Source of the DNA: Escherichia coli
GTDB lineage: Bacteria > Pseudomonadota > Gammaproteobacteria > Enterobacterales > Enterobacteriaceae
Reading direction: 5' to 3' (one strand)
NCBI RefSeq assembly: GCF_030013595.1
Contig: NZ_CP122771.1
DNA length: 64,000 nucleotides
The notes below the pieces were generated by a model. It was given only the letters and a program-made list of their open reading frames with translations, did not search any database and was not told the DNA's origin. Positions 35,481 through 53,587 of this stretch are shown piece after piece. The first letter of the stretch is position 1. Each line of letters begins with the position of its first letter. The translations under genes were made by a program, and so were the position numbers.

Positions 35481-36461
35481 ATGCGTATCTTTGTAGACGA
35501 CGGCTCTACCAACATCAAACTGGCCTGGGTTGAAGACGGTGCAGTGAAAACGTTAATTAGTCCGAATAGTTTTAAGCCGGAATGGTCTATGACGCTGCAG
35601 GGACTGACTGATGCCACTGTACCCGCTTCCGCAAACTATGAGATTGATGGAGAAAAATACAGCTTTGATCAATTGAGTCCGGATGCAGTGCGCACCACAG
35701 AAACGCGTTATCAGTACAGCGACGTTAATGTGGTTGCTATTCATCATGCGTTGATGCAGTCAGGTATTGCTCCACAACCTGTTGATATTGTTGTGACTTT
35801 ACCTTTAGGTGAGTATCTGGATGAGAACGATCAGCCAAATCTGGCTAATATCGAACGTAAGAAAAATAATGTCCGGCGAACTGTAACAGTTCAGGGGCGT
35901 GAAAACTTTACCATTCGTAAAGTCAGTGTCTTGCCTGAGTCCGTGCCTGCCGGTTTTGACGTGCTGAAAGATCTGAATGATCTGGAGTCGCTGTTGATTG
36001 TTGATATCGGTGGAACGACCCTTGATATTGCACATGTCCGCAGCAAAATGTCAGGTTTCACAAAAACCTATTGTGACCCCAAGACTGGCGTCTCCATCAT
36101 TACTGAAGCAGTTAAGCATGCGATGGATGTGAATGTGAGTACACGAACCAGTTCTTATTTTGCAGATCGTCTAATCCAGGGCCGGGATGACAATGAATTC
36201 CTGACCCGTTATATCCCGAATGCAGAACAGCGTGAGCGGATCCTGACAGTATTACGTGACCGGGAAAAAAAACTGCAGCATCGTGTGGCGGATTCAGTAG
36301 GACGCTTTGCTGGTTTTACTCATGTTATGGTTGTTGGCGGTGGTGCCAGCCTTGTGGCTGGGGCAGTAAAAAAAGCGACAGGAGTGGGTGATAACCGTTT
36401 CTTTGTCAGTGACAATCCTCAGTTCGATCTGGTGTTGGGAATGATGGCAATGAAGGGATGA
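35481..36461 (+). CDS. stbA: StbA/ParM actin-like partition ATPase
   Basis: 326 aa; MRIFVDDGSTNIKLAW... and DIGGTTLDI motifs match recalled R1 ParM / R100 StbA. Confidence 0.85.
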   Translation: MRIFVDDGSTNIKLAWVEDGAVKTLISPNSFKPEWSMTLQGLTDATVPASANYEIDGEKYSFDQLSPDAVRTTETRYQYSDVNVVAIHHALMQSGIAPQPVDIVVTLPLGEYLDENDQPNLANIERKKNNVRRTVTVQGRENFTIRKVSVLPESVPAGFDVLKDLNDLESLLIVDIGGTTLDIAHVRSKMSGFTKTYCDPKTGVSIITEAVKHAMDVNVSTRTSSYFADRLIQGRDDNEFLTRYIPNAEQRERILTVLRDREKKLQHRVADSVGRFAGFTHVMVVGGGASLVAGAVKKATGVGDNRFFVSDNPQFDLVLGMMAMKG

Positions 36462-36886
36462 GTATGGCTGATAATCGTAAGTGCTCTTTTTATATTTATC
36501 CGGAACGAAATGCAGCTGATCGGGTGGCTGACAGGTTTCTTGAAAAATTGCCTCAGAAAGAACGTGGTCGGGCAATGCGGGCCATGATGTTGTGTGGTGC
36601 TGCATTGATGAAGCAGGATGAACGATTGCCGTTCCTGATAGCTGAATTCCTGACAGACAGCACGTCTATGCAGGATATTCAACGAATTATCAGTAGTACG
36701 CTACCACAACAGGAAAATGGTGAAGTCGTTCGTTTGCTGGAGGCATTTCTGCAGTCTGCTGGTAATAATGCAAAAGCGATCCTGCCTGCGGTTGATTCTG
36801 CTACGCAAGAAATATCTGCTCCAGTCGATCAGAATCTCCTGGAAACAAGAAACAACATTAAGAACTTGTTTCCGGATGATGAATAA
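36458..36886 (+). CDS. stbB: StbB/ParR partition adaptor
   Basis: 142-aa ORF overlapping the stbA stop; position as ParR/StbB. Confidence 0.65.
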   Translation: MSMADNRKCSFYIYPERNAADRVADRFLEKLPQKERGRAMRAMMLCGAALMKQDERLPFLIAEFLTDSTSMQDIQRIISSTLPQQENGEVVRLLEAFLQSAGNNAKAILPAVDSATQEISAPVDQNLLETRNNIKNLFPDDE

Positions 36887-36904
36887 GAACTGAACTCTGT
36901 TAAA

Positions 36905-36928
36905 GGACGCTGTTGCGTCCTTTTTTCT
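36905..36928 (+). terminator. Rho-independent terminator after stbB
   Basis: GGACGC-tgtt-GCGTCC followed by a T-run. Confidence 0.6.
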
Positions 36929-37258
36929 TTTCCGACAAAGGATGTCGCCGGGCTCCTCTTTTTACTGCGCCGGCTGACGCGGCGCGGCAGGAACGCTGCC
37001 TGTGGTCAGTATCCCGCGTCCGGCCGGGCACGGGACGGGCGCTTTTACCGCTCCCGGCTGGCGTCGGTGGCAGTGTACGCCAGCCCGTCGCCCTTTTCTG
37101 ATGAACGCCCTTCAAGCCGCTTTCGCGGCATATCCTCGCCGTCAAACAGACGACGGCTGCGGTATTCCACGGTCGGCCTGACCCGTTATCGGACGCGGTG
37201 AACAGCCCACAGGCCGCGGGGAACGGGCGCCACAGGGGCGCCCTCCCGGTGCTCTCTG
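36924..37258 (+). repeat. Leading-region repeat type A, copy 1 (Frpo/ssi-like)
   Basis: About 335 bp nearly identical to 38244-38567; GC-rich with multiple hairpins, upstream of a leading-region gene. Confidence 0.7.
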
Positions 37259-37286
37259 CTGAAGCAGAAGTGAGAGGAGAATTCCC

Positions 37287-38213
37287 ATGCCAAACTGGTG
37301 CTCAAATCGTATGCATTTTTCTGGTGAACCGGCACAGATTGCTGAGATTAAACGACTGGCCAGCGGTGCAGTCACACCGTTTTATCGCCGCGCCACAAAT
37401 GAAGGTATTCAGCTGTTTCTGGCCGGAAGTGCCGGACTTCTGCAGACCACTGAAGATGTGCAGTTTGAACCGTGCCCCGGAGTGACGGCTGCCGGACGTG
37501 GTGTTGTATCGCCGGAGAATATCGCGTTCACCTGCTGGCTGACACACCTGCAGAACGGTGTGCTACTGGATGAACAAAACTGCCTGATGCTGCATGAACT
37601 CTGGCTGCAGAGTGGTACTGGCCAGCGTCGCTGGGAAGGATTACCGGATGAGGTCAGGGAAACCATCACCGTGCATTTCACCGCCAAAAGAGGTGACTGG
37701 TGTGGCTTCTGGAGTAACGAGGATGTATCGGTGTGGTGGAACCGTCTGTGTGACAATGTACTGCCGGAAAAAACCATGCCGTTTGACCTGCTGACGGTTC
37801 TGCCCACCCGCCTGGATGTTGAAGTGAATGGCTTTAACGGTGGTGTTCTGAATGGTGTTCCTTCTGCGTATCACTGGTATACGGAACAGTATGGCGTGAA
37901 GTGGCCTGTGGGGTATGAGGTGAATATCAGCCGTCAGGGAGAAAACTTCATTCAGGTGGATTTCGACACGCCGTGGTGTCAGCCGGAAAGCAACGTTGTT
38001 GCAGAATTAAGCCGCCGTTTCGGCTGCACGCTGGAGCACTGGTACGCCGAACAGGGCTGCAATTTCTGTGGCTGGCAGTTGTATGAGCGCGGAGAGCTCG
38101 TTGATGTGCTGTGGGGGGAACTGGAATGGTCTTCCCCGACAGATGACGATGAGCTGCCGGAAGTCACCGGACCTGCGTGGATAGTCGACAAGGTGGCGCA
38201 TTATGGCGGATGA
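37287..38213 (+). CDS. Conserved leading-region protein (308 aa, Trp/Cys-rich)
   Basis: RBS gagagga before ATG 37287; first gene after repeat type A copy 1. Confidence 0.6.
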   Translation: MPNWCSNRMHFSGEPAQIAEIKRLASGAVTPFYRRATNEGIQLFLAGSAGLLQTTEDVQFEPCPGVTAAGRGVVSPENIAFTCWLTHLQNGVLLDEQNCLMLHELWLQSGTGQRRWEGLPDEVRETITVHFTAKRGDWCGFWSNEDVSVWWNRLCDNVLPEKTMPFDLLTVLPTRLDVEVNGFNGGVLNGVPSAYHWYTEQYGVKWPVGYEVNISRQGENFIQVDFDTPWCQPESNVVAELSRRFGCTLEHWYAEQGCNFCGWQLYERGELVDVLWGELEWSSPTDDDELPEVTGPAWIVDKVAHYGG

Positions 38214-38227
38214 AGTATGACGGAGAC

Positions 38228-38250
38228 GGGCGGGCAACCGCCCGTTTCTT
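38228..38250 (+). terminator. Terminator-like hairpin after the 308-aa gene
   Basis: GGGCGG-gcaa-CCGCCC followed by a T-run. Confidence 0.5.
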
Positions 38251-38567
38251 TTCCGGTAAAGGATGTCGCCGTGCTCCTCTTTTTACTGCGCCGGCTGACG
38301 CGGCGCGGCATAAACGCTGCCTGTGGTCAGTGTCCCGCGTCCGGCGGGCACGGGACGGACGCTTTTACCGCTCCCGGCTGGCGTCAGTGACAGTGTACGC
38401 CAGCCCGTCGCCCTTTCTGATGAACGCCCTTCAAGCCGCTTTCGCGGCATAGCCTTGCCGTCAAACAGACGACGGCTGCGGTATTCCACGGTCGGCCTGA
38501 CCCGTTACCGGACGCGGTGAACAGCCCACAGGCCGCGGGGAACGGGCACCACAGGGGTGCCCTCCCG
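38244..38567 (+). repeat. Leading-region repeat type A, copy 2 (Frpo/ssi-like)
   Basis: Near-identical to 36924-37258. Confidence 0.7.
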
Positions 38568-38595
38568 GTGCCCTCTGTAAGAGAAGGAGGCTTTT

Positions 38596-39279
38596 ATGTC
38601 CCGTTTTATCCTGGGTGACTGCGTGCGAGTTATGGCCACGTTTCCGGACAATGCTGTCGATTTCATCCTCACCGACCCGCCGTATCTCGTCGGTTTCCGT
38701 GACCGTTCCGGGCGCACCATTGCCGGTGACGTTAACGATGACTGGCTGCAACCTGCCAGTAATGAGATGTACCGCGTACTCAAAAAAGACGCGTTAATGG
38801 TGAGCTTCTATGGCTGGAACCGCGTCGATCGCTTTATGGCCGCCTGGAAAAATGCGGGATTCAGCGTGGTTGGCCACCTGGTGTTTACCAAAACCTACAC
38901 ATCGAAGGCCGCATATGTGGGCTATCGCCACGAATGCGCCTACATCCTGGCAAAAGGACGTCCGGCGCTGCCTCAGAAGCCATTGCCCGACGTGCTGGGC
39001 TGGAAATATTCAGGCAACCGCCATCACCCGACGGAAAAGCCTGTTACCAGCCTGCAACCGCTCATTGAGAGCTTCACACATCCGAACGCGATTGTGCTGG
39101 ACCCGTTTGCAGGCAGCGGCTCAACATGCGTCGCCGCCCTCCAGTCCGGACGCCGGTATATCGGTATCGAGCTGCTTGAACAGTATCACCGTGCCGGACA
39201 GCAACGACTGGCCGCCGTGCAACGGGCCATGCAGCAGGGGGCCGCGAATGATAACTGGTTTGAACCGGAGGCGGCGTAA
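38596..39279 (+). CDS. Orphan DNA methyltransferase (DPPY motif IV, then FAGSGST motif I)
   Basis: 227 aa with ILTDPPYLVGF and LDPFAGSGSTCVAA; no adjacent restriction endonuclease. Confidence 0.8.
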   Translation: MSRFILGDCVRVMATFPDNAVDFILTDPPYLVGFRDRSGRTIAGDVNDDWLQPASNEMYRVLKKDALMVSFYGWNRVDRFMAAWKNAGFSVVGHLVFTKTYTSKAAYVGYRHECAYILAKGRPALPQKPLPDVLGWKYSGNRHHPTEKPVTSLQPLIESFTHPNAIVLDPFAGSGSTCVAALQSGRRYIGIELLEQYHRAGQQRLAAVQRAMQQGAANDNWFEPEAA

Positions 39280-39501
39280 ATGAACTATGCCGGACACGAA
39301 AAACTTCGCGCCGAAGTGGCGGAGGTGGCCAACACCATGTGTGACCTTCGGGCCAGGCTGAACGATATGGAGCATCGCTGTCGCTTTGATTCCGATGTGC
39401 TTGTTGAACGCCTGACACGCCAGACGCTGTATCGCGCCAATCGCCTGTTCATGGAGGCATATACCGAAATTCTGGAACTGGATTCCTGCTTCAAAGATTG
39501 A
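39280..39501 (+). CDS. Hypothetical small leading-region protein (73 aa)
   Basis: ATG immediately after the methyltransferase stop (TAAATG). Confidence 0.45.
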   Translation: MNYAGHEKLRAEVAEVANTMCDLRARLNDMEHRCRFDSDVLVERLTRQTLYRANRLFMEAYTEILELDSCFKD

Positions 39502-39512
39502 GGAGAGAGAGT

Positions 39513-39947
39513 ATGTACGGAACATGCGAAACGCTGTGCCGGGAGCTGGCAGCAAAGTATCCGGGAGACACGCCACTGATGCTGGTTATCTGGTCTCCGG
39601 AAGATATTCAGGCACTGGCTGACGGTATGGAAATTTCTCTGACCGATCATGAAATCAGGACCGTCCTGGCGCGCATGGAGGACATCCCGGAAGACCAGCG
39701 GACTGAATCCGGTATTTCTTCCGCCGCGGTGATGGAGATTATCAGCAACGTGAGCGAAAACCGCCAGGTGACCGTCCCTGCTGAACTGCTGGCGTCCCTG
39801 ATTCAGACCGCTGAACAGGCACTGTGGAAACGTGAGTGGGCCGCCCGTGATAACGGCCTCGCCGTCCCGGAATGCGTTACCCGCCGTCAGGCGGTGGTTA
39901 ATCAGGCCCGCACCCTGCTGAAAAACAACACACACGAAAACAACTGA
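39513..39947 (+). CDS. Hypothetical leading-region protein, paralog of 41662-42084
   Basis: RBS gaggagagaga before ATG 39513; shares MYxT... N-terminus and RQVTVPA motif with the paralog. Confidence 0.55.
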
Positions 39948-39997
39948 TGTTATCGCCGCCTGCCCTGCGGGCGGCGATACAGGGAGAACGCTTAATC

Positions 39998-40777
39998 ATG
40001 AACGAAAACAGCACGCTGAACGCACTGATTTGTCGTCACGCCCGTAACCTGCTGCTGGCGCAGGGCTGGCCGGAGGAGACGGATGTTGATCAGCGAGATC
40101 CACAGAACTATCCGGGCTGGATCAGCATTTACGTGCGGCTGGATGCGCCCCGGCTGGCGACGTTACTTATCAACCGTCACGGCGGCGTACTGCCGCCGCT
40201 CCTGGCCTCCGCCATTCAGAGACTGACCGGAACCGGGGCGGAACTGGTACTGTCCGGCAGTCAGTGGCAGTCGCTGCCGGTACTTCCGGCAGACGGAACG
40301 CAGGTGTCTTTCCCGTATGCCGGAGAATGGCTGACCGAAGACGAAATCAGGGCTGTTCTTGATGCGGTGCACGATGCGGTACGAAGCATCTGTTACCAGG
40401 TGGCAGAAGATGCGCGGCGTATCCGTGCGGCGCTGACCACCACCGGTCAGACGTTGCTGACCCGCCAGACGCGCCGCTTTCGCCTGGTCGTGAAGGAAAG
40501 CGATCACCCCTGCTGGCTCGATGAAGATGACGAAAACCTGCCCGTGGTGCTCGATGCCATCGTGAACCGGGGAGCACGTTTTTCGTCGGTGGAAATGTAT
40601 CTGGTCAGTGAGTGTATTGAGCATATCCTGTCCAGTGGGCTGGCCTGCGATGTGCTGCGTATACCGGATGAACCGCCCCGCCGCTGGTTTGACCGTGGTG
40701 TTCTGCGGGAAGTTGTCCGGGAAGCCCGGGCCGAAATCCGCAGCATGGCGGATGCCCTGACAAAAATCAGGGGCTGA
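39998..40777 (+). CDS. Hypothetical leading-region protein (259 aa)
   Basis: ATG 39998 preceded by agggaga; uninterrupted ORF. Confidence 0.55.
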
Positions 40778-41189
40778 TGATGGCGGGGAAAATCCCCGCC
40801 TTTTTCCTGCCGGTCCCCGGACAGAGCACAAAGGAAGTCGCCGCCGGCTCCGCTTTACCCGGCCATGCAGGCATGGCCTTGTGGGTTTTCAGTTATGTGG
40901 CCACAGTGTCGTGTGCGGGCTGTGCCGTGCCTCCATCTTAGCCGGGCTGGCGTTGATGCAAGGGTACGCTTCGCCGCTGCGGTCACCCGGTCCCTCCTTC
41001 CCGTCTGCCGTGATTTTCCGGTCGTTCACCCGCTCAGATTTCGCGGTCTCACCCTCCAACTCCCGCCAGCCGTGTGCGTCAGGCTGCGGCTTCCCTTGCG
41101 CCCTGTGCATCCCCGCCTTATCGCCCGGCTTTTATGGAGGCACGGCACCGCCCGGTGTCGCGGAATATGTGAACAACGGAGGAAATCCC

Positions 41190-41615
41190 ATGCAGTATGC
41201 AAAATCTGTCATTCTGAACGTTGAAGAGTGCGACCGTCTGTCTTTTCTGCCTTACCTGTTTGGCAACGATTTTCTGTATGCCGAGGCATCTGTGTACGCG
41301 CTGGCGAAAAAAATGATGCCGGAATATGAAGGCGGATTCTGGCACTTCATCCGCCTGCCGGACGGTGGCGGTTACATGATGCCGGATGGCGACCGTTTTC
41401 ATCTGGTCAACGGTGAAAACTGGTTTGACCGTACGGTCAGCGCCGATGCCGCAGGCATCATTCTGACCTCCCTTGTGATTAACCGCCAGTTGTGGCTGTA
41501 CCACGACAGCGGGGATGCGGGACTGACACACCTGTACCGGATGCGCGATGCGCAGTTGTGGAGCCACATCGAATTTCACCCCGAATGTAACGCGATTTAC
41601 GCGGCACTGGACTGA
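41190..41615 (+). CDS. ArdB/KlcA-family antirestriction protein
   Basis: 141 aa; motifs [20 protein letters not shown] and [10 protein letters not shown] resemble recalled KlcA/ArdB. Confidence 0.75.
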
Positions 41616-41661
41616 TTAACGGACGGGGCGGCAATGCCGTCCCTGTAAAGGCGACGAGAAC

Positions 41662-42084
41662 ATGTACTGTACTGTTAAAGAAATTATCCGCGAAGTGCTG
41701 GATACAGACGTGCCGGACAGTGAATGCGTTTTTGCCGTGGTGCTGACCCGTGGGGATGTGCGTCACATAGCCCAGGACTGGAACCTGTCAGACGATGAGC
41801 TGGAAACCGTCATGCAGCGGCTGGACGATGCCTTTGAGCATGGTGCGGATGTCAGCGTTGTTCACGACGTTGTTCGTGAACTGATGGAAGAAAAGCGCGC
41901 CAGCCGTCAGGTGACAGTCCCGGCGGTGATGCTGGAAAAAGTGATGGCGCTGGCAGGCAGTGAAATGAAGCGCCTGTATGCCGTCGGGAGTGAGAACGGG
42001 GGCGACGGTGACGCATTCGTCAGGGAAGAACGCGAAGCAATGGACGTTGTGTTACAGGCGCTGGACGGGGAGCACATGTCATGA
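41662..42084 (+). CDS. Hypothetical leading-region protein, paralog of 39513-39947
   Basis: 140 aa; shares N-terminal MYCT and RQVTVPA motif with the paralog. Confidence 0.55.
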   Translation: MYCTVKEIIREVLDTDVPDSECVFAVVLTRGDVRHIAQDWNLSDDELETVMQRLDDAFEHGADVSVVHDVVRELMEEKRASRQVTVPAVMLEKVMALAGSEMKRLYAVGSENGGDGDAFVREEREAMDVVLQALDGEHMS

Positions 42085-42272
42085 ATATCAGCACAGAAAC
42101 CCGCGAAATTCTGCGTAATTACAGGGCCGTGATTAATGCACGACGTCGTGAGATGGGGCAGAAACCGCTCACCACCGCGCAGGTTGTTGATGAAATCTGC
42201 GATTTTGTGGCGAATCAGCAGGCGGTTTTCCTCGGTGGTCACTACATCCTGCAGGGTAACAGAAACAGATGA
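42081..42272 (+). CDS. Hypothetical small protein (63 aa)
   Basis: ATGA overlap with the preceding gene. Confidence 0.4.
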   Translation: MNISTETREILRNYRAVINARRREMGQKPLTTAQVVDEICDFVANQQAVFLGGHYILQGNRNR

Positions 42273-42458
42273 TACAGAGGCAGGCGGTGGAGGCCGCCTG
42301 TCAGCCCGCGCGAAAACCCCTGGCAGGCTGGCGCCTGCCGGAAGGGAAGCGGGCCACGCTGGCGCGTCGCCCGTTACCCTTCCCGTTTGTGATGTGTCCG
42401 GAATGTTTTTTTCTGATGGTATGACCCTGTTCCTGTTGTTGTTGTTGTTCTTTTCTCT

Positions 42459-43072
42459 GCTGCCCTGATTCTGACTACTGCAGTGTTGTCCTGTCTGCCT
42501 GCGCACCTTCGGCTCCCGGCTGCCTGGCGGCATCCGGTCGTCAGGCCCGACTCCGACAGGCAGCTGCTGGCGCACCCGCCAGTCTCCGCCGAACCCGCTG
42601 GCGCGGTTTCGGGCTGTCGCTACGGTCCGATGCGTGAAAACCCCGGGCTTGCAGCGACCGTTCCGGTCGCGCCACCCTTGTCGCGCCGTGGCCTGCGCTC
42701 CCGGCATCCCGGCAAAAGGCCGCCGGGATGTAAGGCGCAACGCCGTTTCGCGCACGCGCTCTCCGTCGTTGCGGCGGGTCCCTGCTCATTGCCTGCCGGG
42801 TGCCACACACCCGTATGAGTCCCTGTCGCCGGGGGCTGATACAGCCACAACCTGCCGCACTGACTGTCCAGGGTAAATGAACAGCCCACAAAATTTTTTA
42901 CCCAAAACCCGGTAAAAAATTTTGCGTTCTGCCCGGGACAGGTGCGTCAGGCCGTGGCAGTGATGCCCCTTGCGGCGAAGGTTCTCAAACGGGTGAAGTT
43001 CATACCACAGGGAATACAGCAGCAGGTTCCCGCGAAACGTCAAAACCGCGGCTCCCGAAACTCAACGGGTGA
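42459..43072 (+). repeat. Leading-region repeat type B, copy 1 (Frpo-like; contains a 14-bp perfect hairpin at 42888-42926)
   Basis: About 600 bp shared with 45926-46373 and 56247-56835; conserved hairpin CAAAATTTTTTACC/GGTAAAAAATTTTG. Confidence 0.7.
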
Positions 43073-43303
43073 TGTTCTTTAAAAATCAGGATTTATTTCA
43101 GGCTCCGGCAATATGCATTTATTTGTTCTGTCAGTCATCCGGCTGGCAGGTAATGAGAACGCAGGAACAGAAGGAGGAAAACACCGGAGAACGTCAGACG
43201 CAGATATGAAAAAAGCAGGTCAGGGACCTGCTTAATCCACACCGCAGAGACTGCACGAACAGTCTTTACGGTTTCATTAATTAACGTCATAAGAGGCTAA
43301 ATT

Positions 43304-43534
43304 ATGACAGTAAGTATTGTTTCACCTTCCGCAGCGGCTGTAAAGCCCCGCCGTCATCCCCGTTTCAGACGCGAAGACATCCCCGCGCCGGAAATTGACC
43401 CCGTGCTGAAAGCCTTCGGGCGACACATTGCCCGGAGTTTTCACCGGGGGCGTGGTGTACACATCCCCGCCATGAAAAACACGACCTTCGGGCAGGTGCT
43501 CCGCACACTCGAACTGAAACGCGCTTTTAACTGA
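43304..43534 (+). CDS. Hypothetical small basic protein (76 aa)
   Basis: ATG with upstream gaggc; first ORF after repeat B copy 1. Confidence 0.4.
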   Translation: MTVSIVSPSAAAVKPRRHPRFRREDIPAPEIDPVLKAFGRHIARSFHRGRGVHIPAMKNTTFGQVLRTLELKRAFN

Positions 43535-43585
43535 TGAGGTGAGCCGCCCCGCGAGGGGCGGCAACAGACGGAAGGAGAACATTTT

Positions 43586-44947
43586 ATGACATTAGCAGCA
43601 ATCACCATGACCGCCCCGGAAGCCGCCAGCCCTGTGCAGATGTACCGCGCGACCTACTCACCGGATGACAACAAACTGCGCCTGTATGCCGTGTCACGTC
43701 TTGACCCGGAGACGTATAAAAAAGTGCATGATGCCGGTTTCCGCTGGGCACCAAAACAGGAGCTGTTTGTCGCGCTAGCCTGGACACCGGGCCGGGAAGA
43801 CGTGCTCCTCTCACTTGCCGGAGAGATTGAGGATGAAGACAGCACGCTCGCTGAACGTCAGGAAGCACGGGCGGAGCGGTTTACCGGATACAGCGGAAAG
43901 CGGGCCAGTGAATCCGCACAGGCACTTGATGAAGTGGAAAGACTGGCCGCGATGATCCCGCCCGGTCAGCCCATTCTTGTGGGGCATCACAGCGAACGCC
44001 GCACCCGTCGTGATGCGCAGCGTATTGAAAACGGCATGAAACGAGCAGTGATGCTCTTTGAACGTGCGGAATACTGGGAAGAGCGGGCGCGGTCGGCACG
44101 GCTTCACGCGAAGTATAAAGAACGTCCGGACGTTCGCTGGCGTCGCATCAAAAAAATCGAAGCTGATTTGCGCAAGGCTGAAAAGACCATCGCACAGTCG
44201 CAGAAATATCTGACGATGTGGCGGGCTGAATCGCTGGATCTGAATATGGCAAAATTCATCAGCAGTTATGACCGTATCAGTGCCTGTTTCCCGCTGGATA
44301 CGTATCCGCGCCCGGCAGAAAAAAGCCAGTATGAAGGGAGCCGGTCGTTATGGTCGGCCCTGGATGATGACATCATCACCACGGAGCAGGCCCGCGAAAT
44401 TGCGATCCGCTGTCATGAACGGCAGATTCAGCATCAACAACGCTGGGTTAACCACTATCAGAACCGCCTGATCTATGAGCGTACCATGCTGGACGAAAGC
44501 GGCGGCGTGGTTACCCGGACACAGGATTTTGAGCCGGGCGGACAGGTTTTCAGCCGGGGCGAGTGGCTGACCATCATCCGTGTGAACAAAAGCAACGGGG
44601 CGGTGAGTTCAGTCACAACGCCGAATTACAGTTTCCTCGGGTACAGCGGCACGATGAAAGTGACGCCCGATCGCATCACGGACTACAAAGCACCATCGGC
44701 AGAAGAGGCTGCCGTCGCCAGCCAGGCCGCGAAGCGTCCGCCGGTAGTCAACTATCCGGGGGAAGGTTTCCGGGAAATGACAAAGGCACAGTGGGCCGCC
44801 CTGCCCCGGGACTGTAAGGCCGTGCGCAGTGTGGCAGAAGCAGAAGACCACGGGGCATACCGCTACCGCCGCACAATGGACAATAATTTCCGTCTGGTGA
44901 ATGTGTATATCACCGACATGAAAATTACGGAAATCCCACAGAAATAA
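43586..44947 (+). CDS. Conserved leading-region protein (453 aa)
   Basis: RBS aaggaga before ATG 43586; long uninterrupted ORF. Confidence 0.6.
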   Translation: MTLAAITMTAPEAASPVQMYRATYSPDDNKLRLYAVSRLDPETYKKVHDAGFRWAPKQELFVALAWTPGREDVLLSLAGEIEDEDSTLAERQEARAERFTGYSGKRASESAQALDEVERLAAMIPPGQPILVGHHSERRTRRDAQRIENGMKRAVMLFERAEYWEERARSARLHAKYKERPDVRWRRIKKIEADLRKAEKTIAQSQKYLTMWRAESLDLNMAKFISSYDRISACFPLDTYPRPAEKSQYEGSRSLWSALDDDIITTEQAREIAIRCHERQIQHQQRWVNHYQNRLIYERTMLDESGGVVTRTQDFEPGGQVFSRGEWLTIIRVNKSNGAVSSVTTPNYSFLGYSGTMKVTPDRITDYKAPSAEEAAVASQAAKRPPVVNYPGEGFREMTKAQWAALPRDCKAVRSVAEAEDHGAYRYRRTMDNNFRLVNVYITDMKITEIPQK

Positions 44948-44993
44948 GGTATATCCCCCCGGGAAATCCCCGGGGGATGACGGAGATAATGAC

Positions 44994-45557
44994 ATGCACA
45001 GTCAGTTAAGAGAACGTATCCGGCTGATGCGCGCAAGGCTGGATAACGCCGCGCCGGTTGCTGAAATCCGGGCTGAATCTCAGCTTTTTGTGACTCCTGC
45101 CCCGGTCTGTGATCGCCTGGTGACGCTGGCGGAGATCAGCAACCGTGATCACATTCTGGAACCCTCTGCCGGCACCGGGGCCATACTGCGGGCGATTCGG
45201 GATACCGCGCCGGGGGCCATGTGTGATGCGGTGGAAATCAACAGCGGGCTGGTCCGGTATCTGCGGGAAAATTTTAACGGTGTCAGGGTTCAGTGTGGCG
45301 ACTTCATGGAATGGCAGCCGGTGCAGTATTACAGCCGGGTTATCATGAATCCGCCGTTCAGCCACGGGCAGGATATCCGGCATATCCTGCGGGCCTTTTC
45401 CCTGTTGCGTCCGGGTGGCGTGCTGGTCGCCGTCTGTCTCAACGGACCACGCCAGCAGGAGAAGCTGTTGCCGTTTTCTGACGTCCGCGAGGAGCTGCCG
45501 CGCGGCACGTTTGCTTATACCCGTGTTCCGACGATGATTATTCGTCTGCGGGCCTGA
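44994..45557 (+). CDS. Orphan SAM-dependent DNA methyltransferase (EPSAGTGA motif I, then NPPF motif IV)
   Basis: 187 aa with ILEPSAGTGAIL and VIMNPPFSHG; no partner endonuclease. Confidence 0.7.
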   Translation: MHSQLRERIRLMRARLDNAAPVAEIRAESQLFVTPAPVCDRLVTLAEISNRDHILEPSAGTGAILRAIRDTAPGAMCDAVEINSGLVRYLRENFNGVRVQCGDFMEWQPVQYYSRVIMNPPFSHGQDIRHILRAFSLLRPGGVLVAVCLNGPRQQEKLLPFSDVREELPRGTFAYTRVPTMIIRLRA

Positions 45558-45721
45558 AGACGCCGGGCAGGCGGGAGGATAAATGCCTGTCTGTCCGCGC
45601 CGGGAAAAGACCGCGCGCCGGTGGCGCTGAAAGGGGCCGCGCTGACGCGCCGCCCCTTTCATTACGCGGACGTTCTGACGGGGGCTTCTGTCTTTTCAGA
45701 CCTGTCATTTGCCTGTTACTG

Positions 45722-45775
45722 ATGATGTTGTTGTTCCTGCTACTGCTACTGCTACTGCTACTGCTACTGCTACTG
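45722..45775 (+). repeat. Microsatellite (GTT)n followed by (CTGCTA)6 upstream of repeat B copy 2
   Basis: Six perfect tandem CTGCTA units read directly; the equivalent position in copy 1 (42432-42450) carries (GTT)5. Confidence 0.85.
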
Positions 45776-45925
45776 TTCTTCTTTTTTCTGATGCTCTCAT
45801 TACTGTCTGTTTTGTTGTTCTCCTGCTTATGCCTTTTCCGGGCGTCCCCCTGGCGGGGCGGGCTGTCGTGAACGGAGCCAGCGAAGCTGTCTCCGCCCTG
45901 GCGGGCTTCCATCCCTGACGCCAAA

Positions 45926-46373
45926 CCCCCTGGCTTGCAGCGACCGTTCCGGTCGCGCCGCCTCTGTCGCGCCGTGACCTGCGCTCCCGGCATCCCGGCA
46001 AAAGGCCGCCGGGATGTGAGGGGCAACGCCGTTTCGCGCACGCGCTCTTCGTCGTTGCGGCGGGTGCCTGCCCGTTGTTGTATCCGGTGCCCTGCACCCG
46101 TTTAAGCCCCTGTCGCCGGGGGCAAAGACAGCCACAACCGTCTCCGCCAGTCCAGGGGTGAAATGCACATCCCACAAAAGTTTTTGCCCAAAAGCCGGCA
46201 AAAACTTTTGTGGTCTGCCCCCGGACAGTCGTTTCCGGCCGTGGCAGTGATGCCCCTTGCGGCGAAGGTTCTCAAACGGGTGATGGTTAATACCGGAGGG
46301 AACAAACGGCAGGTCCCCGCAAAACGTCAAAACCGCGGCTCCCGAAACTCAACGGGTGATGGGGGCTGAAAAC
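45926..46373 (+). repeat. Leading-region repeat type B, copy 2 (5'-truncated; hairpin at 46174-46212)
   Basis: Aligns with copy 1 from ...ggcttgcagcgaccgttcc onward; hairpin arms carry compensatory changes. Confidence 0.7.
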
Positions 46374-46394
46374 ATCAACAGAAGGAGACACATC

Positions 46395-46925
46395 ATGGCA
46401 GTTCGTGGAATTAACAAGGTCATTCTTGTCGGTCGCCTGGGAAAAGATCCGGAAGTCCGTTACATCCCCAACGGGGGCGCAGTGGCAAACCTGCAGGTGG
46501 CCACGTCAGAAAGCTGGCGTGACAAACAGACGGGGGAGATGCGGGAGCAGACGGAATGGCATCGCGTGGTGTTGTTCGGCAAGCTCGCGGAAGTGGCTGG
46601 TGAATATTTGCGTAAGGGTGCGCAGGTCTACATCGAGGGGCAACTCCGTACCCGTAGCTGGGACGACAACAACGGCGTCACCCGTTACATCACTGAAATC
46701 CTTGTTAAAAACACGGGCACCATGCAGATGCTGGGACGTGCCGCAGGTACTCAGACTCAGCCGGAAGAGGCGCAACAGTTCAGCGGTCAGCCTCAGCCGG
46801 AATCACAGCCGGAACCGAAAAAAGGTGGCGCGAAAACGAAAGGCCGTGGACGTAAGGCCGCGCAGCCGGAGCCTCAGCAGCCGTCTGAACCCGCGTATGA
46901 CTTCGATGACGACATTCCGTTCTAA
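46395..46925 (+). CDS. ssb: Plasmid single-stranded DNA-binding protein
   Basis: [48 protein letters not shown]... OB-fold and acidic C-terminal tail DFDDDIPF. Confidence 0.9.
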
Positions 46926-46953
46926 CGAAAGACAGTGACAACCGCCCCGTCCA

Positions 46954-47214
46954 GTGCGGGGCATCACCGGAGATATGAGGATGAGCGAATATTTCAGAAT
47001 ATTTCAGGGGCTGCCTGACGGCTCCTTTACCCGCGAACAGGCTGAAGCCGTTGCCGCACAGTACCGGAATGTCTTTATCGAGGATGATCAGGGAACGCAT
47101 TTTCGCCTGGTTGTCCGCAATAACAGTGGCCTGGTCTGGCGTACCTGGAATTTTGAGGACGGTGCCGGGTACTGGATGAACCATGTCATCCGGAATTTCG
47201 GCATTCTTAAGTAA
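46954..47214 (+). CDS. Hypothetical small leading-region protein (86 aa)
   Basis: ORF immediately after ssb; internal ATG at 46981 is an alternative start. Confidence 0.45.
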
Positions 47215-47277
47215 GAGAGGTGCCGGACGGGAACGCGTCCGGCAGACATACAACCATCCCGGTCAAAGGAGAAATAT

Positions 47278-49236
47278 ATGTCAGTTACAGAGTCTAAGAC
47301 AAAAACGGAGCGTAAATCCAGCCGTAAACCTGCAAAAACGCAGGAAACAGTCCTGTCTGCCCTGCTGGCGCAGACGGAGGAAGTGAGCGTGCCGCTGGCC
47401 TCACTGATTAAATCACCGCTGAATGTGCGCACGGTGCCGTATTCTGCGGAGTCCGTCAGCGAACTGGCGGACTCCATTAAAGGTGTCGGCCTGTTACAGA
47501 ATCTGGTTGTTCATGCCCTGCCAGGTGACCGTTACGGTGTCGCCGCAGGCGGTCGCCGACTGGCAGCACTCAACATGCTGGCAGAGCGCAACATCCTTCC
47601 GGCTGACTGGCCTGTACGCGTGAAGGTCATTCCGCAGGAGCTGGCGACTGCCGCATCGATGACCGAGAACGGTCAGCGTCGGGATATGCACCCTGCCGAA
47701 CAGATTGCCGGATTCCGCGCAATGGCGCAGGAAGGCAAAACACCTGCACAAATCGGTGATTTGCTGGGCTATTCACCCCGCCACGTTCAGCGAATGCTGA
47801 AACTGGCTGACCTTGCGCCTGTCATCCTCGATGCGCTGGCAGAAGACCGCATCACCACCGAACACTGTCAGGCGCTGGCGCTGGAGAACGACACCGCGCG
47901 TCAGGTGCAGGTGTTTGAAGCCGCCTGTCAGTCGGGATGGGGCGGTAAACCGGAAGTACAGACCATTCGTCGTCTGGTGACCGAAAGTGAAGTGGCGGTG
48001 GCGGGGAACAGTAAATTCCGCTTCGTGGGGGCTGATGCCTTCTCGCCAGACGAACTGCGCACCGATTTGTTCAGCGACGACGAAGGTGGCTATGTGGACT
48101 GCGTGGCGCTCGATGCCGCCCTGCTGGAAAAACTCCAGGCTGTCGCAGAGTTCCTTCGGGAAGCCGAAGGCTGGGAATGGTGCGCCGGACGCATGGAGCC
48201 TGTCGGTGAGTGCCGTGAGGATGCCGGAACATACCGCTGTCTGCCGGAGCCGGAAGCGGTGCTGACGGAGGCGGAAGAAGAACGTCTGAACGAACTGATG
48301 ACGCGTTACGACGCGCCGGAAAACCAGTGTGAGGAATCTGACCTGCTGGAAGCAGAAATGAAGCTGATGCGCTGCATGGCGAAGGTCAGGGCGTGGACGC
48401 CGGAGATGCGTGCCGGAGGTGGAGTGGTGGTGTCCTGGCGTTATGGCAACGTGTGTGTCCAGCGTGGTGTGCAGTTGCGCAGTGAGGATGACGTGGCTGA
48501 CGACGCTGACCGTACGGAACAGGTGCAGGAGAAAGCGTCAGTGGAGGAAATCAGTCTGCCACTGCTGACGAAAATGTCTTCCGAACGCACGCTGGCAGTC
48601 CAGGCAGCACTGATGCAGCAACCGGACAAATCTCTGGCACTGCTGGCATGGACGCTCTGCCTGAATGTGTTTGGCAGCGGAGCGTACAGTAAACCAGCAC
48701 AAATCAGCCTGGAATGTAAACATTATTCGCTGACCAGCGATGCGCCATCGGGGAAGGAAGGTGCCGCATTCATGGCGCTGATGGCAGAAAAAGCCCGTCT
48801 TGCTGCCCTGTTACCGGAGGGATGGTCACGGGACATGACGACATTCCTGTCACTCAGTCAGGAGGTGCTGTTATCCCTGCTCAGTTTCTGCACCGCATGC
48901 AGCCTTAACGGTGTCCAGACCCGTGAGTGTGGTCACACGTCACGCAGTCCGCTTGACACGCTGGAAACCGCCATCGGCTTTCACATGCGAGACTGGTGGC
49001 AGCCGACAAAAGCAAACTTCTTCGGACACCTGAAAAAGCCGCAGATTATCGCAGCCCTGAATGATGCCGGACTGTCCGGTGCCGCACGGGATGCAGAGAA
49101 GATGAAGAAAGGTGATGCGGCTGAACATGCAGAGCACCATATGAAAGACAACCGCTGGGTGCCTGGCTGGATGTGTGCACCACGTCCACAGACGGATACC
49201 ACTGAACGCACCGATAACCTGGCTGATGCCGCCTGA
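47278..49236 (+). CDS. ParB-like nuclease-domain protein (652 aa)
   Basis: RBS aaaggaga before ATG; N-terminal ParB/Srx-like region (LQNLVVHALPGDRYGVAAGGRRLAAL). Confidence 0.75.
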   Translation: MSVTESKTKTERKSSRKPAKTQETVLSALLAQTEEVSVPLASLIKSPLNVRTVPYSAESVSELADSIKGVGLLQNLVVHALPGDRYGVAAGGRRLAALNMLAERNILPADWPVRVKVIPQELATAASMTENGQRRDMHPAEQIAGFRAMAQEGKTPAQIGDLLGYSPRHVQRMLKLADLAPVILDALAEDRITTEHCQALALENDTARQVQVFEAACQSGWGGKPEVQTIRRLVTESEVAVAGNSKFRFVGADAFSPDELRTDLFSDDEGGYVDCVALDAALLEKLQAVAEFLREAEGWEWCAGRMEPVGECREDAGTYRCLPEPEAVLTEAEEERLNELMTRYDAPENQCEESDLLEAEMKLMRCMAKVRAWTPEMRAGGGVVVSWRYGNVCVQRGVQLRSEDDVADDADRTEQVQEKASVEEISLPLLTKMSSERTLAVQAALMQQPDKSLALLAWTLCLNVFGSGAYSKPAQISLECKHYSLTSDAPSGKEGAAFMALMAEKARLAALLPEGWSRDMTTFLSLSQEVLLSLLSFCTACSLNGVQTRECGHTSRSPLDTLETAIGFHMRDWWQPTKANFFGHLKKPQIIAALNDAGLSGAARDAEKMKKGDAAEHAEHHMKDNRWVPGWMCAPRPQTDTTERTDNLADAA

Positions 49237-49290
49237 TGAACAACCACACCGCCCCGCCGGAGACGGGGCGGCAGCAAGGGAGATACCGTG

Positions 49291-49725
49291 ATGAAAACTG
49301 AACTGACCCTGAATGTATTACAGACCATGAGTGCACAGGAATATGAAGATATCCGGGCAGCCGGAAGTGATGAACGTCGTGAGCTGACACACGCCGTGAT
49401 GCGGGAACTGGATGCGCCGGACAACTGGACGATGAACGGCGAGTACGGCAGCGAGTTCGGCGGCTTTTTCCCCGTCCAGGTCCGCTTCACGCCTGCCCAC
49501 GAACGTTTTCACCTGGCGTTATGTTCACCGGGCGATGTCTCTCAGGTCTGGGTGCTGGTTCTGGTGAATGCCGGTGGTGAGCCGTTTGCGGTGGTTCAGG
49601 TGCAGCGGCGGTTTGTACCGGAAGCTGTCAGCCATTCACTGGCACTGGCGGCGTCACTGGATGGGCAGGGGTACAGCGTTAACGACATCATCCATATCCT
49701 GATGGCGGAAGGAGGTCAGGCATGA
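49291..49725 (+). CDS. psiB: PsiB, plasmid SOS-inhibition protein B
   Basis: [36 protein letters not shown]... matches recalled F PsiB (144 aa). Confidence 0.9.
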
Positions 49726-50441
49726 GCGCACGTTCACAGGCACTGGTTCCCCTCAGCGCAGAGCAACAGGCCGCATGGCGGGCGGTGGCGGAGACGGAAA
49801 AACGCCGCCATCAGGGAAACTCGCTGGCGGAATATCCGTATGCGGGGGCGTTTTTCCGCTGTCTGAACGGAAGCCGCAGGATATCGCTGTCTGACCTGCG
49901 ATTTTTCATGCCGTCCCTGACCGCAGAAGAACTGCACGGCAACCGTCTTCAGTGGCTGTATGCCATCGATGTGCTGATTGAAACACAGGGCGAGGTCTGC
50001 CTCCTTCCCCTTCCCGGTGATGCAGCAGAGCGGCTGTTCCCGTCGGTGCGGTTCCGTGTCAGGGAACGCAGTCGCCATAAATCCGCGCTGGTCATGCAGA
50101 AGTACAGCCGCCAGCAGGCACGGGAGGCAGAGCAGAAAGCCCGTGCGTACCAGGCGCTGGTTGCTCAGGCTGAAATCGAACTGGCATTCCATTCGCCGGA
50201 GACGGTCGGAAGCTGGCATGCCCGCTGGAGTGACCGGGTGGCGGAGCATGACCTGGAAACGCTGTTCTGGCAGTGGGGTGAGCGTTTTCCGTCACTGGCC
50301 GGAATGGAACGCTGGCAGTGGCAGGATATGCCGTTCTGGCAGGTCATCGCAGAGGCTGGTATGGCGGCAAGGGTGGTCGGTCATGCTGTTCGTGAGATGG
50401 AGCGGTGGATGGTGCCGAACAAACTCCGGGAGGCAGCGTGA
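49722..50441 (+). CDS. psiA: PsiA
   Basis: 239-aa ORF overlapping the psiB stop; size and position as F PsiA. Confidence 0.9.
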
Positions 50442-50474
50442 TGCGTAAGCGGCTCGCCAGAACCGTATTGATAT

Positions 50475-52046
50475 TTACTGAGAGGTCAGATCAACTTTCC
50501 AGGGCAACAGATCGCGTACCCGGTTTGCCGGCCAATCCTGGATATGCTCAATGACGTAACGCAGCCATTTTTCTGGTTCCACATTGTTCAGACGGCATGT
50601 GCCGATCAGCGAGTACAACACCGCCGCATGTTCGCCACCGCTGTCGGAACCCGCGAAGAGCCAGTTTTTCCGGCCTACGGCCACTCCCCGTAAGGCGTTC
50701 TCTGCGATGTTGTTGTCGATTTCCACCCAGCCATTACTGCAGTACACGTTCAGGGCCTCCCACTGTTTCAGCAGGTATGCGAACGCTTTTGCCGTATCCG
50801 AGTGACGCGACAGTGTTTTCATCTGTTCCTGTATCCAGTCATACAGTGACTGCATCAGTGGAGCCGCTCTGGCTTTTCTTGCTGCCAGACGCTGTTCTGC
50901 TGAACATCCCCGGACTTCTGCCTCGATGACATACAGTTCACCGATACGCTGCAGGGCTTCCGTGGTGATGTCGGTTGGCACTCTTGCATGCACATCGTGG
51001 ATTTTTCTCCGGGCATGGGCCATACACGCGGCTTCCGTTATTCTGCCGGATTCGTATAACGCCCGGTAACCACCGTAAGCATCTGCCTGAAGCACACCGC
51101 TGTAACCGGCCAGGTGATTCTGTGGATGGATACCTTTCCGGTCCGGGCTGTACGCGAACCAGACCGCCGGGGGCATCTGTGAACCGGCGTTACGGTCATC
51201 ACGGACATAGACCCACAGCCGGGCAGTTCTTGTTTTACCACTGCCCGGCTCCTGGACCGGAACGGGGATATCATCCGCATGGACTTTACCGGGCATCAGC
51301 ACATACTGGCGCAGCACGTCATACAGCGGCTCCAGCAGTTCAGCAACGGCACCGGTCCAGCGCCCCAGCGTGGCGCGGCTCAGTTCCACGCCCTGACGAA
51401 GGTATATTTCTGACTGGCGGTATAACGGCAGATGGTCTGCATACTTCCCGGTGACGATATGAGCCAGAAGCCCCGCTCCGGCATAACTGCGTGCAATGGG
51501 TTTTGAAGGTACTGGTGCCTGCACGATATGGTCGCACCGGCAACAGGCCAGTTTCGGACGTTGTGTTTCGATAACCTTAAAAGCGCTGCTGATAAGCTCC
51601 AGTTGCTCTGACACATCACACCCCAGAGGACTGAGGTCACCACCACAGGCCGGGCAGCATTCCTCTTCCGGCCGGATGACCCGGGTTTCACGGGGAAGTG
51701 AGGCCGGTAACGGCTTACGGGCTGAAGACTGGCGCAGGGCGGATGGCAGTACCGGGTCATATTGCTCATCCAGCGTTTCCGCCATTTCTTCCTGAAGTGC
51801 GCTGATTCGCTCCTGGGCTTCCTGTATCTGCCGTTCGGTTTTAGCGCGAAGTTTTTCTGAGCTTTTACCGAACTGCATGCGCTGCAGTTTCGCAACCAGC
51901 GCCTTCAGCCGGTTGATTTCGGAAGCATAAGCCGCCACCCGCTGTGAGAGCAGGCGGTTGTATTTCGCCATCTGGCGGATGGTGTCCTGTTGCGTCTGCA
52001 ACAGTGCCCGCAGGCGGGCATTCTCATGAGCAAGTGAGGTGTCCAT
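50475..52046 (-). CDS. IS66-family transposase (TnpC)
   Basis: 523 aa with N-terminal coiled coil, CxxC...CC zinc-finger region and DDE-type core typical of IS66 TnpC. Confidence 0.9.
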
Positions 52047-52065
52047 ATCCTCACTTTACAACGGG

Positions 52066-52413
52066 TTATATGCGGATGCCAGCGCGTTCCGTTCGTTTCG
52101 GGTGCTTCCAGTCGATGCCTTCGAGAAGCATGGACAACTGAGCCGGAGTAAGGTGAACCTTTCCATCGCGGGTGACCGGCCAGACGAAGCGGCCCCGCTC
52201 CAGGCGTTTGGTGAAGAGGCACAGTCCGTCACTGTCAGCCCACAGCACTTTTATCTGGTCACCCCGGCGTCCGCGGAAGATGAACAGATGCCCGGAGAAC
52301 GGGTCATCCTTCAGGACGTTCTGAACTTTTGAGGCCAGGCCGTTAAAGCCATTTCGCATATCGGTGATACCGGCAACCAGCCAGATACGCGAACCGGCAG
52401 GGAGAGATATCAT
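52066..52413 (-). CDS. IS66-family accessory protein TnpB (Orf2)
   Basis: 115 aa, MISLPAGSRIWLVAGITDMRNGFNGLA... typical IS66 Orf2. Confidence 0.85.
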   Translation of the reverse strand: MISLPAGSRIWLVAGITDMRNGFNGLASKVQNVLKDDPFSGHLFIFRGRRGDQIKVLWADSDGLCLFTKRLERGRFVWPVTRDGKVHLTPAQLSMLLEGIDWKHPKRTERAGIRI

Positions 52414-53063: not shown

Positions 53064-53374
53064 CTTAAATGTCCCTTTACTGCGAAAATGGACATTAGTA
53101 TCGGAAACAGGAAAGGGAGGCGAAAGACGGTTTAAATGAGACGGTTACCGTGATGCGGCAACAATCACATGGATTTCCCGTGAACGGTCTGAATGAGCGG
53201 ATTATTTTCAGGGAAAGTGAGTGTGGTCAGCGTGCAGGTATATGGGCTATGATGTGCCCGGCGCTTGAGGCTTTCTGCCTCATGACGTGAAGGTGGTTTG
53301 TTGCCGTGTTGTGTGGCAGAAAGAAGATAGCCCCGTAGTAAGTTAATTTTCATTAACCACCACGAGGCATCCCT

Positions 53375-53587
53375 ATGTCTAGTCCACATCAGGATAGCCT
53401 CTTACCGCGCTTTGCGCAAGGAGAAGAAGGCCATGAAACTACCACGAAGTTCCCTTGTCTGGTGTGTGTTGATCGTGTGTCTCACACTGTTGATATTCAC
53501 TTATCTGACACGAAAATCGCTGTGCGAGATTCGTTACAGAGACGGACACAGGGAGGTGGCGGCTTTCATGGCTTACGAATCCGGTAA
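53375..53587 (+). CDS. mok: Mok (FlmC) leader ORF overlapping hok
   Basis: 70-codon ORF overlapping hok in a different frame, as in hok/sok loci. Confidence 0.5.

Follow-up and report, generated by a model that had tools for sequence, protein, structure and literature searches.

A probable split DUF3560-methyltransferase enzyme in the leading region of an IncF-type conjugative plasmid

The leading regions of conjugative plasmids are enriched for anti-defence genes, orphan methyltransferases, single-stranded-DNA-binding proteins (SSBs) and toxin-antitoxin genes, encoded on the transferred-strand template (Samuel 2024, PMC11541004). DUF905, DUF1380, DUF1281 and DUF3560 are among the 30 largest leading-region-enriched families in the supplementary table of that study. 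Here, an island of this kind was analysed in a stretch of 64,000 nucleotides (nt) of the Escherichia coli contig NZ_CP122771.1 (assembly GCF_030013595.1), referred to below as the window. The studied interval, 38596-45557 (6.96 kb), carries two methyltransferase genes (methyltransferase 1 and methyltransferase 2), a KlcA/ArdB anti-restriction gene and a DUF3560 gene, and the relationship between the DUF3560 protein and methyltransferase 2 is the main subject of this report.

The closest described systems are the leading regions of F (Frpo1/Frpo2 = ssp1, ssp2, ssp3; Masai & Arai 1997; Couturier 2023; PMC12672017; PMC11541004) and of the IncI1 plasmid pESBL. Three classes of single-stranded DNA (ssDNA) promoters have been mapped in pESBL, and the operons of the KlcA and M.EcoGIX homologues were induced in F transconjugants (Wen 2025, PMC12672017). 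Zygotic induction of the ssb-psiA operon from Frpo2 has also been published (PMC12672017; PMC13370423), and F ssp2, of class 2, is both a promoter and a replication roadblock (bioRxiv 10.64898/2026.01.09.698686). When ssp2, which lies upstream of the klcA/ardB homologue of F, was deleted, transfer decreased 36-fold when the recipients carried EcoGIII and 5-fold when they carried EcoKI (same preprint). M.EcoGIX of pESBL is a beta-class, single-strand-specific enzyme with promiscuous N6-methyladenine (m6A) activity in the SAY context, whose expression is silent in the donor (Fomenkov 2020, PMC7736820). It guards pESBL from recipient restriction only with oriT in its native orientation, and is an orphan enzyme by experiment (PMC7736820). 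The ParB-like protein YfjB/HerB, in contrast, reprograms host transcription and is not a defence inhibitor (PMC13370423), so a leading-region gene of no assigned role is not automatically anti-defence.

The window was collinear with F, with 94.3% identity over 37270-42422 and 92.5% over 45819-50445, and was also collinear with pESBL. The genes showed the same orientation relative to the transferred strand as in F. The window differs from F in an extra 2.7-kb cassette between Frpo-type hairpin copies, and in an IS66 element and a group II intron nearer the nick.

Position relative to the oriT nick

The window covers most of an IncF-type conjugative plasmid. The tra operon lies on the plus strand from 248 to ~26.9 kb, including a TraI of 1756 amino acids (aa), and traM/traJ/FinP are found at 59.2-60.5 kb. 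Rfam models recognised CopA, sok, FinP and the traJ leader. The oriT nick region was found on the minus strand at 58972-58993 as a single match to the R100-type sequence TTTGCGTAGTGTGTGGTGCTTT, with 2 mismatches to the F nick sequence (0 matches expected from 100 shuffles). Because the nick is on the minus strand, this is the strand that is transferred, 5′ to 3′ toward lower coordinates, and all genes of the region have it as their template. Measured from the nick along the transferred strand, the studied interval occupies the stretch from 13.4 to 20.4 kb. The leading-region location, which the original prediction had proposed, is thus demonstrated by the nick site. The stretch 36.9-50.4 kb very probably represents the canonical leading region of an IncF-type conjugative plasmid, with five same-strand operons that each stand behind a long hairpin of the transferred strand.

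The DUF3560-methyltransferase 2 pair and its cassette

Methyltransferase 2 (44994-45557, plus strand, 187 aa) is an amino-methyltransferase core dependent on S-adenosylmethionine (SAM). It belongs to the class I SAM methyltransferases (Pfam MTS, E 3e-6; RrnaAD was also matched). Its motif I (EPSAGTG, residues 56-61) precedes its motif IV (NPPF, residues 119-122), as in the gamma-class N6-adenine enzyme M.TaqI. The catalytic domain of M.TaqI was also the best relative of solved structure found by sequence (E 1.8e-6), aligning only over residues 22-122 of the 421-aa M.TaqI, and the best structural relatives were a type I HsdM subunit and M.TaqI. In contrast to the gamma-class enzymes, methyltransferase 2 ends at residue 187 with no target-recognition domain, and its homologues are uniformly ~187 aa; a separate DUF3560 protein appears to supply the partner function. 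A likeness to polyvalent phage and plasmid proteins was also seen, as the best PHROG matches of methyltransferase 2 were internal methyltransferase domains of proteins of 1259-3431 aa.

The DUF3560 protein (43586-44947, plus strand, 453 aa; Pfam PF12083 in homologues) is proposed to be the non-catalytic partner. Its gene and that of methyltransferase 2 are 46 nt apart. The two genes are also adjacent in L006 and L007, and in the divergent plasmid L006 the adjacency is kept at only 68% and 56% protein identity. An exhaustive search for relatives of the DUF3560 protein gave 3922, and fusions were counted among the best 150 representatives. Relatives of at least 560 aa accounted for 101 of these 150, and in 94 of the 101 the C-terminal part held a domain with 35-48% identity to methyltransferase 2 (E 1e-16 to 1e-39). 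A C-terminal domain related to methyltransferase 1 was found in none of them. One fused relative (P0263) matched both DUF3560 and MTS in Pfam. The fusion argument rests solely on representatives of 42-56% identity. A DUF3560-methyltransferase fusion more than 90% identical to the window proteins was rejected, since it was a lone sequence on a short contig and is most simply a frameshift or gene-calling artefact.

Because 94 of the 101 longer relatives are fused to a methyltransferase-2-like domain, the DUF3560 protein and methyltransferase 2 are probably one split enzyme, the split form of a widespread ~670-aa fusion, and not two independent factors. From the gene-fusion pattern the two proteins would associate physically, with DUF3560 supplying the substrate binding or targeting that the core lacks. 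This split-enzyme relation is what the present analysis adds to the literature. The fused forms were found on phage-like metagenomic contigs, beside terminase or portal genes and in early regions with RecT/YqaJ. Fused proteins of 671 aa were seen on two contigs, at L009 8001-10016 and L010 2073-4088, in an early region near YqaJ/RecT genes and small open reading frames (ORFs). A tblastn search with DUF3560 against 50,697 deposited phage genomes gave one weak partial match.

DNA appears to be the substrate of methyltransferase 2, judging from its relatives. Alternatively, the pair could modify RNA (e.g., an rRNA adenine) or protein (glutamine, as HemK does) and serve host reprogramming instead of anti-restriction. 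Among NCBIfam models the core came closest to Erm and KsgA, which are rRNA methyltransferases, and to PrmC, each time far short of the cutoff, and its Pfam matches were MTS and RrnaAD, with no DNA methylase family among them. The top solved-structure match of its profile was Dim1, and the nearby HerB provides a precedent for host reprogramming (PMC13370423). However, the NPPF motif speaks for an N6-adenine DNA methyltransferase, and so do the top matches by single sequence and by structure (M.TaqI, type I HsdM and PacII). The better-matching PHROG families are annotated as DNA methyltransferase domains of giant phage or plasmid proteins, the PADLOC matches were type II and orphan DNA methyltransferases and mad2, and the RecT/YqaJ early regions in which the fused relatives lie are the usual phage location of anti-restriction methylases. 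An RNA or protein substrate is therefore considered improbable, and DNA is kept as the preferred one.

The AlphaFold model of DUF3560 had a mean predicted local distance difference test score (pLDDT) of 93.8 and a predicted template modelling score (pTM) of 0.82. It has three parts: at the N terminus a small alpha/beta domain, then a long helical bundle that carries a near-invariant GQPILVGHHS loop, and at the C terminus a beta-rich domain. Foldseek against AFDB50 returned only members of the family, some of them mislabelled as hydrolase. We tentatively propose, as a model somewhat more likely to fail than to hold, that the pair is a two-subunit adenine methyltransferase of an uncharacterised kind. 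DUF3560 would then have a new fold, with an invariant GQPILVGHHSE loop in its helical bundle, and would act in DNA loading or target recognition, and the pair would form a second entry-protection system mechanistically distinct from M.EcoGIX, split in plasmids and fused in phages. In this model its genes would be turned on from the Frpo hairpin in ssDNA, and turned off by the antisense RNA AS-pc01 after synthesis of the complementary strand.

The pair belongs to the 2.7-kb cassette. F and pESBL lack 43075-45770, which holds AS-pc01, a 76-aa ORF, DUF3560 and methyltransferase 2. The cassette is flanked by direct repeats of the Frpo type, ~440 nt each, at 42638-43074 and 45923-46361, which are 79-96% identical in segments. 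Recombination between the two Frpo copies would yield exactly the F layout, which suggests that leading-region operons may be gained and lost as promoter-flanked cassettes. At a coverage of at least 80%, the cassette was present in 4406 or more PLSDB records. In Klebsiella pneumoniae, three chromosomal CRISPR spacers are reportedly directed against the DUF3560 gene, and the neighbouring SAM-methyltransferase gene and the hypothetical gene upstream of it are also targeted by such spacers (PMC6965323), so hosts aim adaptive immunity at the cassette.

The first cassette gene is the 76-aa ORF (43304-43534, plus strand). It encodes a very basic protein (isoelectric point (pI) 11.9), is preceded by a Shine-Dalgarno sequence and is annotated as hypothetical; no family match was obtained for it, PADLOC included. 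The AS-pc01 antisense RNA was found on the minus strand at 43210-43309 (Rfam RF02875, 98.9 bits versus a gathering score of 79, model positions 1-99, full length). It is complementary to the ribosome-binding site and the ATG of the 76-aa ORF, and has its own minus-strand promoter-like site (43344-43316) and a terminator (43233-43213). Since its template is the plus strand, AS-pc01 can be made only after complementary-strand synthesis. AS-pc01 may thus help to silence the cassette after establishment. AS-pc01 thereby gains a plausible target and a plausible logic. Other plasmid antisense RNAs recognised by Rfam on the minus strand were AS-pc02 (27172-27355), AS-traI (23129-23205) and AS-traG (13680-13765).

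The methyltransferase 1 and KlcA/ArdB operons

Methyltransferase 1 (38596-39279, plus strand, 227 aa) is an M.EcoGIX-type beta-class N6-adenine methyltransferase and the homologue of F YubD. It matched Pfam N6_N4_Mtase (PF01555, E 1.9e-37) and the NCBIfam DNA methyltransferase PRK13699 (E 5e-149, above its cutoff), and was 89% identical to M.EcoGIX of pESBL-EA11 across all 227 residues. Motif IV (DPPY, residues 27-30) is followed by motif I (FAGSGS, residues 171-176), which is the beta order. The original prediction of two methyltransferases with differing motif order was therefore correct, with DPPY before FAGSGS in the first and EPSAGTG before NPPF in the second. Methyltransferase 1 shares with M.EcoGIX its length of 227 aa, the beta order with DPPY, the same upstream hairpin element and the same neighbours, namely DUF1281 upstream and YubE, DUF1380, a ~260-aa ORF and klcA downstream. 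The differences are the replicon, IncF here versus IncI1 for pESBL, and a doubling of the hairpin in the window, with an extra copy ahead of the DUF1281 gene. By analogy, methyltransferase 1 is predicted to share the ssDNA m6A activity of M.EcoGIX.

The DUF1281/YubB gene (37287-38213, plus strand, 308 aa, Api92-like) follows parM/stbB (35481-36886). Its product matched PDB 2ijr 'api92' (E 1.2e-49), and it is annotated as DUF1281 in matching plasmids. Downstream of methyltransferase 1, the YubE-family gene (39280-39501, plus strand, 73 aa; PHROG 4830, E 2e-36) has its start codon immediately after the methyltransferase 1 stop codon, and its syntenic gene in L006 matched Pfam PF27407 YubE. It is followed by DUF1380 paralogue a (39513-39947, plus strand, 144 aa, acidic with pI 4.7; PHROG 9024, E 4e-73; DUF1380 annotation) and by the last gene of the operon, a 258-aa ORF (39998-40777, plus strand; PHROG 8919, E 1e-140) with a terminator-like hairpin behind it at 40782-40800. 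The 258-aa ORF gave no Pfam, NCBIfam, PADLOC or PDB match, and a 276-aa reading frame gave none in Pfam. Profile and sequence comparisons of DUF1380 and the 258-aa ORF with solved structures returned designed helical proteins or no match. Papers retrieved under the F 'yub' gene names were all unrelated. The order methyltransferase 1-YubE-DUF1380-~260-aa ORF was kept even at 35% DUF1380 identity. A YubE-DUF1380 fusion more than 90% identical to the window proteins was a single sequence on a short contig, and was set aside as most simply a frameshift or gene-calling artefact.

The klcA operon encodes the KlcA/ArdB anti-restriction protein (41190-41615, plus strand, 141 aa), which matched KlcA (PDB 2kmg, E 1.4e-17), ArdB (2wj9, E 3.6e-8) and the anti-restriction family PHROG 10132 (E 5.5e-20), as expected for the ArdB/KlcA-like protein that had been noticed in the island before. 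It was 94% identical to the pESBL protein, and its syntenic gene in L006 matched PF03230. It resembles KlcA of IncP plasmids, ArdB of pKM101 and R64 and YfgB of F in its length of 141 aa, and has a class-2 (ssp2-type) hairpin ahead of it as in F and pESBL. There was no notable difference from the known family, whose effect in vivo depends on the dose and on the restriction system. By analogy, this protein is predicted to relieve type I restriction. DUF1380 paralogue b (41662-42084, plus strand, 140 aa, pI 4.4, net charge -17; DUF1380 annotation; PHROG 9024, E 6e-6) comes next, followed by a 63-aa ORF (42081-42272, plus strand), whose start overlaps the DUF1380b stop codon. The 63-aa ORF is annotated as hypothetical in F, pESBL and close plasmids, and had no match in family searches, including NCBIfam and PHROG.

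The paralogous pair sharing RQVTVPA, as first noticed, proved to be the two DUF1380 proteins, which, compared as 39498-39947 and 41662-42084, are 27% identical over 116 residues (E 8e-10), RQVTVPA included; homologues of both groups carry PF07128 or the DUF1380 name. The three intervals that had been given for the genes of unassigned function do hold ORFs, and the count is corrected here to seven, each with a Shine-Dalgarno sequence: YubE, DUF1380a and the 258-aa ORF in 39280-40777, DUF1380b and the 63-aa ORF in 41662-42272, and the 76-aa ORF and DUF3560 in 43304-44947.

These small proteins were taken as anti-defence candidates in the original prediction. YubE, both DUF1380 proteins and the 258-aa, 63-aa and 76-aa ORFs could instead be other establishment factors, acting in strand conversion, replication priming, modulation of the SOS response or host physiology, or as regulators or chaperones of adjacent enzymes. 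HerB/YfjB is a conserved leading-region gene that acts on host transcription (PMC13370423), none of these ORFs matched PADLOC or an anti-defence family, and the conserved gene order behind methyltransferase 1 fits accessory roles tied to that enzyme. On the other hand, the families are strongly enriched in leading regions beside proven anti-defence genes (PMC11541004), and both DUF1380 proteins are acidic, like many DNA-mimic anti-restriction proteins. Moreover, the F klcA operon includes the DUF1380b homologue, and loss of its expression lowers transfer into restricting hosts (bioRxiv 10.64898/2026.01.09.698686). Roles outside anti-defence are judged rather unlikely, and the anti-defence candidacy of these ORFs is retained. 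For DUF3560 it was revised, because this protein is most likely the partner of methyltransferase 2.

The absence of a partner endonuclease, also claimed before, was borne out: no NCBIfam or PADLOC model for a restriction or defence endonuclease was matched by the neighbouring plus-strand ORFs or by the six longest minus-strand ORFs, and no candidate ORF for a hidden restriction enzyme was found. An overlooked nuclease would place one or both methyltransferases in a restriction-modification or other defence system. The PADLOC label 'MTase_II' for methyltransferase 1 and a weak match of methyltransferase 2 to mad2 (MADS defence system) point in this direction. Against them, all neighbours on the plus strand are accounted for, no family was matched by any of the six longest minus-strand ORFs, the same nuclease-free gene order is found in F, pESBL, L001, L002 and L006, and M.EcoGIX is an orphan by experiment. 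A nuclease partner is accordingly considered extremely improbable, and both enzymes are treated as orphans.

Hairpin promoters and a proposed course of entry

The operons stand behind long hairpins on the minus strand, which are predicted by homology and fold to be ssDNA promoters of classes 1-3. Two class-3 copies, 93-96% identical to each other, were found. Copy A (36924-37258) lies ahead of the DUF1281 gene, with transcription toward higher coordinates. Its counterpart in F, at 96.7% identity, directly precedes the methylase gene, and its counterpart in pESBL, at 94% identity, stands ahead of M.EcoGIX. Copy B (38245-38577) lies ahead of methyltransferase 1 and has a homologue ahead of M.EcoGIX; the fold of 38214-38595 as minus strand reached -105 kcal/mol (z -4.9), and 0 of 100 shuffles were as stable. 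With the second class-3 copy, the DUF1281 gene may also be expressed early from ssDNA. The class-2 (ssp2-type) hairpin ahead of klcA (40831-41183, inverted repeat 40916-40947/41123-41154) is 94% identical to the pESBL sequence upstream of ardA, and its fold (40778-41189) had a z of -4.3.

The two Frpo-type (class 1) hairpins form the boundaries of the accessory module. The upstream copy (42638-43074), at the left boundary, matches the sequence ahead of ssb in F (Frpo2) with 92.5% identity and the Frpo1 region of F with 82%, and its minus-strand fold (42600-43100) reached -139 kcal/mol (z -7.4, 0 of 100 shuffles as stable). The copy ahead of ssb (45923-46373), at the right boundary, is ~92% identical to the F Frpo regions (45770-46373 versus F Frpo1, 91.8%), with a fold (45886-46386) of -143 kcal/mol (z -8.6, 0 of 100 shuffles as stable). 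Just upstream of each Frpo-type copy, at 42426-42461 and 45712-45837, there are imperfect (CTG/GTT)n tracts that are rich in pyrimidines and read as purine-rich on the transferred strand. A consensus scan for sigma-70 promoters found none on the plus strand in 13.8 kb (36800-50600) and 3 sites on the other strand, versus 4.6 expected in total. This lack of a plus-strand consensus is weak evidence that fits hairpin dependence.

The last operon (46395-50441, plus strand) holds ssb (46395-46925), DUF905 (yfjA/yubL), the ParB-like yfjB/herB gene (47278-49236), psiB (49291-49725) and psiA (49722-50441), as assigned by annotation and the ParB domain. It lies within the stretch 45819-50445 compared with F above. 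The earlier placing of ssb, psiB and psiA alongside the island is thus confirmed, all three on the plus strand. Directly after psiA, an IS66-family element lies on the minus strand (50475-53063), with a 523-aa transposase and accessory ORFs of 115 and 216 aa. A group II intron (53905-56203, minus strand; Rfam matches to D1-D4 and domain V/VI) with a 555-aa reverse-transcriptase ORF (53986-55653) sits between hok/sok (53259-53435) and a DUF932 gene.

A course of entry can be proposed. Its identities, architecture, strand logic, hairpins and fusion relation come from this analysis, and early ssDNA expression, M.EcoGIX activity and the klcA-operon effect come from the literature on near-identical genes. 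The minus strand would enter the recipient with its 5′ end first, from the nick at ~58.98 kb. The hairpins (classes 1-3; Frpo/ssi/ssp) would then fold into double-strand-like promoters, from which the genes would be transcribed before the complementary strand exists, and the leading-region genes would become silent once the DNA is duplex. The M.EcoGIX-type enzyme would place promiscuous m6A (SAY) on the entering strand, leaving the new duplex partly shielded from many restriction enzymes, while KlcA/ArdB would relieve type I restriction. The 187-aa core with DUF3560 would act as a second methylation unit, and the small acidic and basic proteins (YubE, the two DUF1380 proteins and the 258-aa, 63-aa and 76-aa ORFs) would be made at the same time. 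AS-pc01, made once the plus strand exists, would finally shut off the cassette after establishment.

The anti-defence reading of the island is supported, by analogy with near-identical sequences for which earlier publications reached it (Fomenkov 2020; Samuel 2024; Wen 2025; 2026 preprints). Several points weigh against it and against the reading of the pair as a DNA methyltransferase. Despite the two methylases and the klcA gene in its annotation, the IncF plasmid pRK100 underwent an average restriction of 290-fold, and in the same study a klcA deletion on pB10 and an ardB deletion on RIP113 had no detectable effect; any protection would thus be partial and dependent on the restriction system. 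The IS66 element and the group II intron move the island ~5 kb farther from the nick in this plasmid. The structure search with DUF3560 gave no informative neighbour, only coiled-coil matches. A concatenated model of DUF3560 and methyltransferase 2 had a pLDDT of 90 and a pTM of 0.64, versus 0.82 for DUF3560 alone, with no confident docking. The methyltransferase 2 core also resembles rRNA adenine dimethylases and HemK almost as closely as it does M.TaqI.

The interval is widespread. At an identity of at least 90%, it was found in at least 5000 PLSDB records, mostly conjugative IncF plasmids in Escherichia, Klebsiella and Salmonella, and at least 3106 records span at least 80% of its 6.96 kb. 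F-like resistance plasmids become established in new hosts in the face of restriction and the SOS response, and the island is part of the machinery that makes this possible. At that level, the finding adds no new biology, and the point worth carrying forward is the split DUF3560-methyltransferase unit with its antisense RNA. DUF3560 and methyltransferase 2 make a concrete, testable pair, and their co-expression may reveal the methylation activity of a cassette carried by thousands of clinical IncF plasmids.

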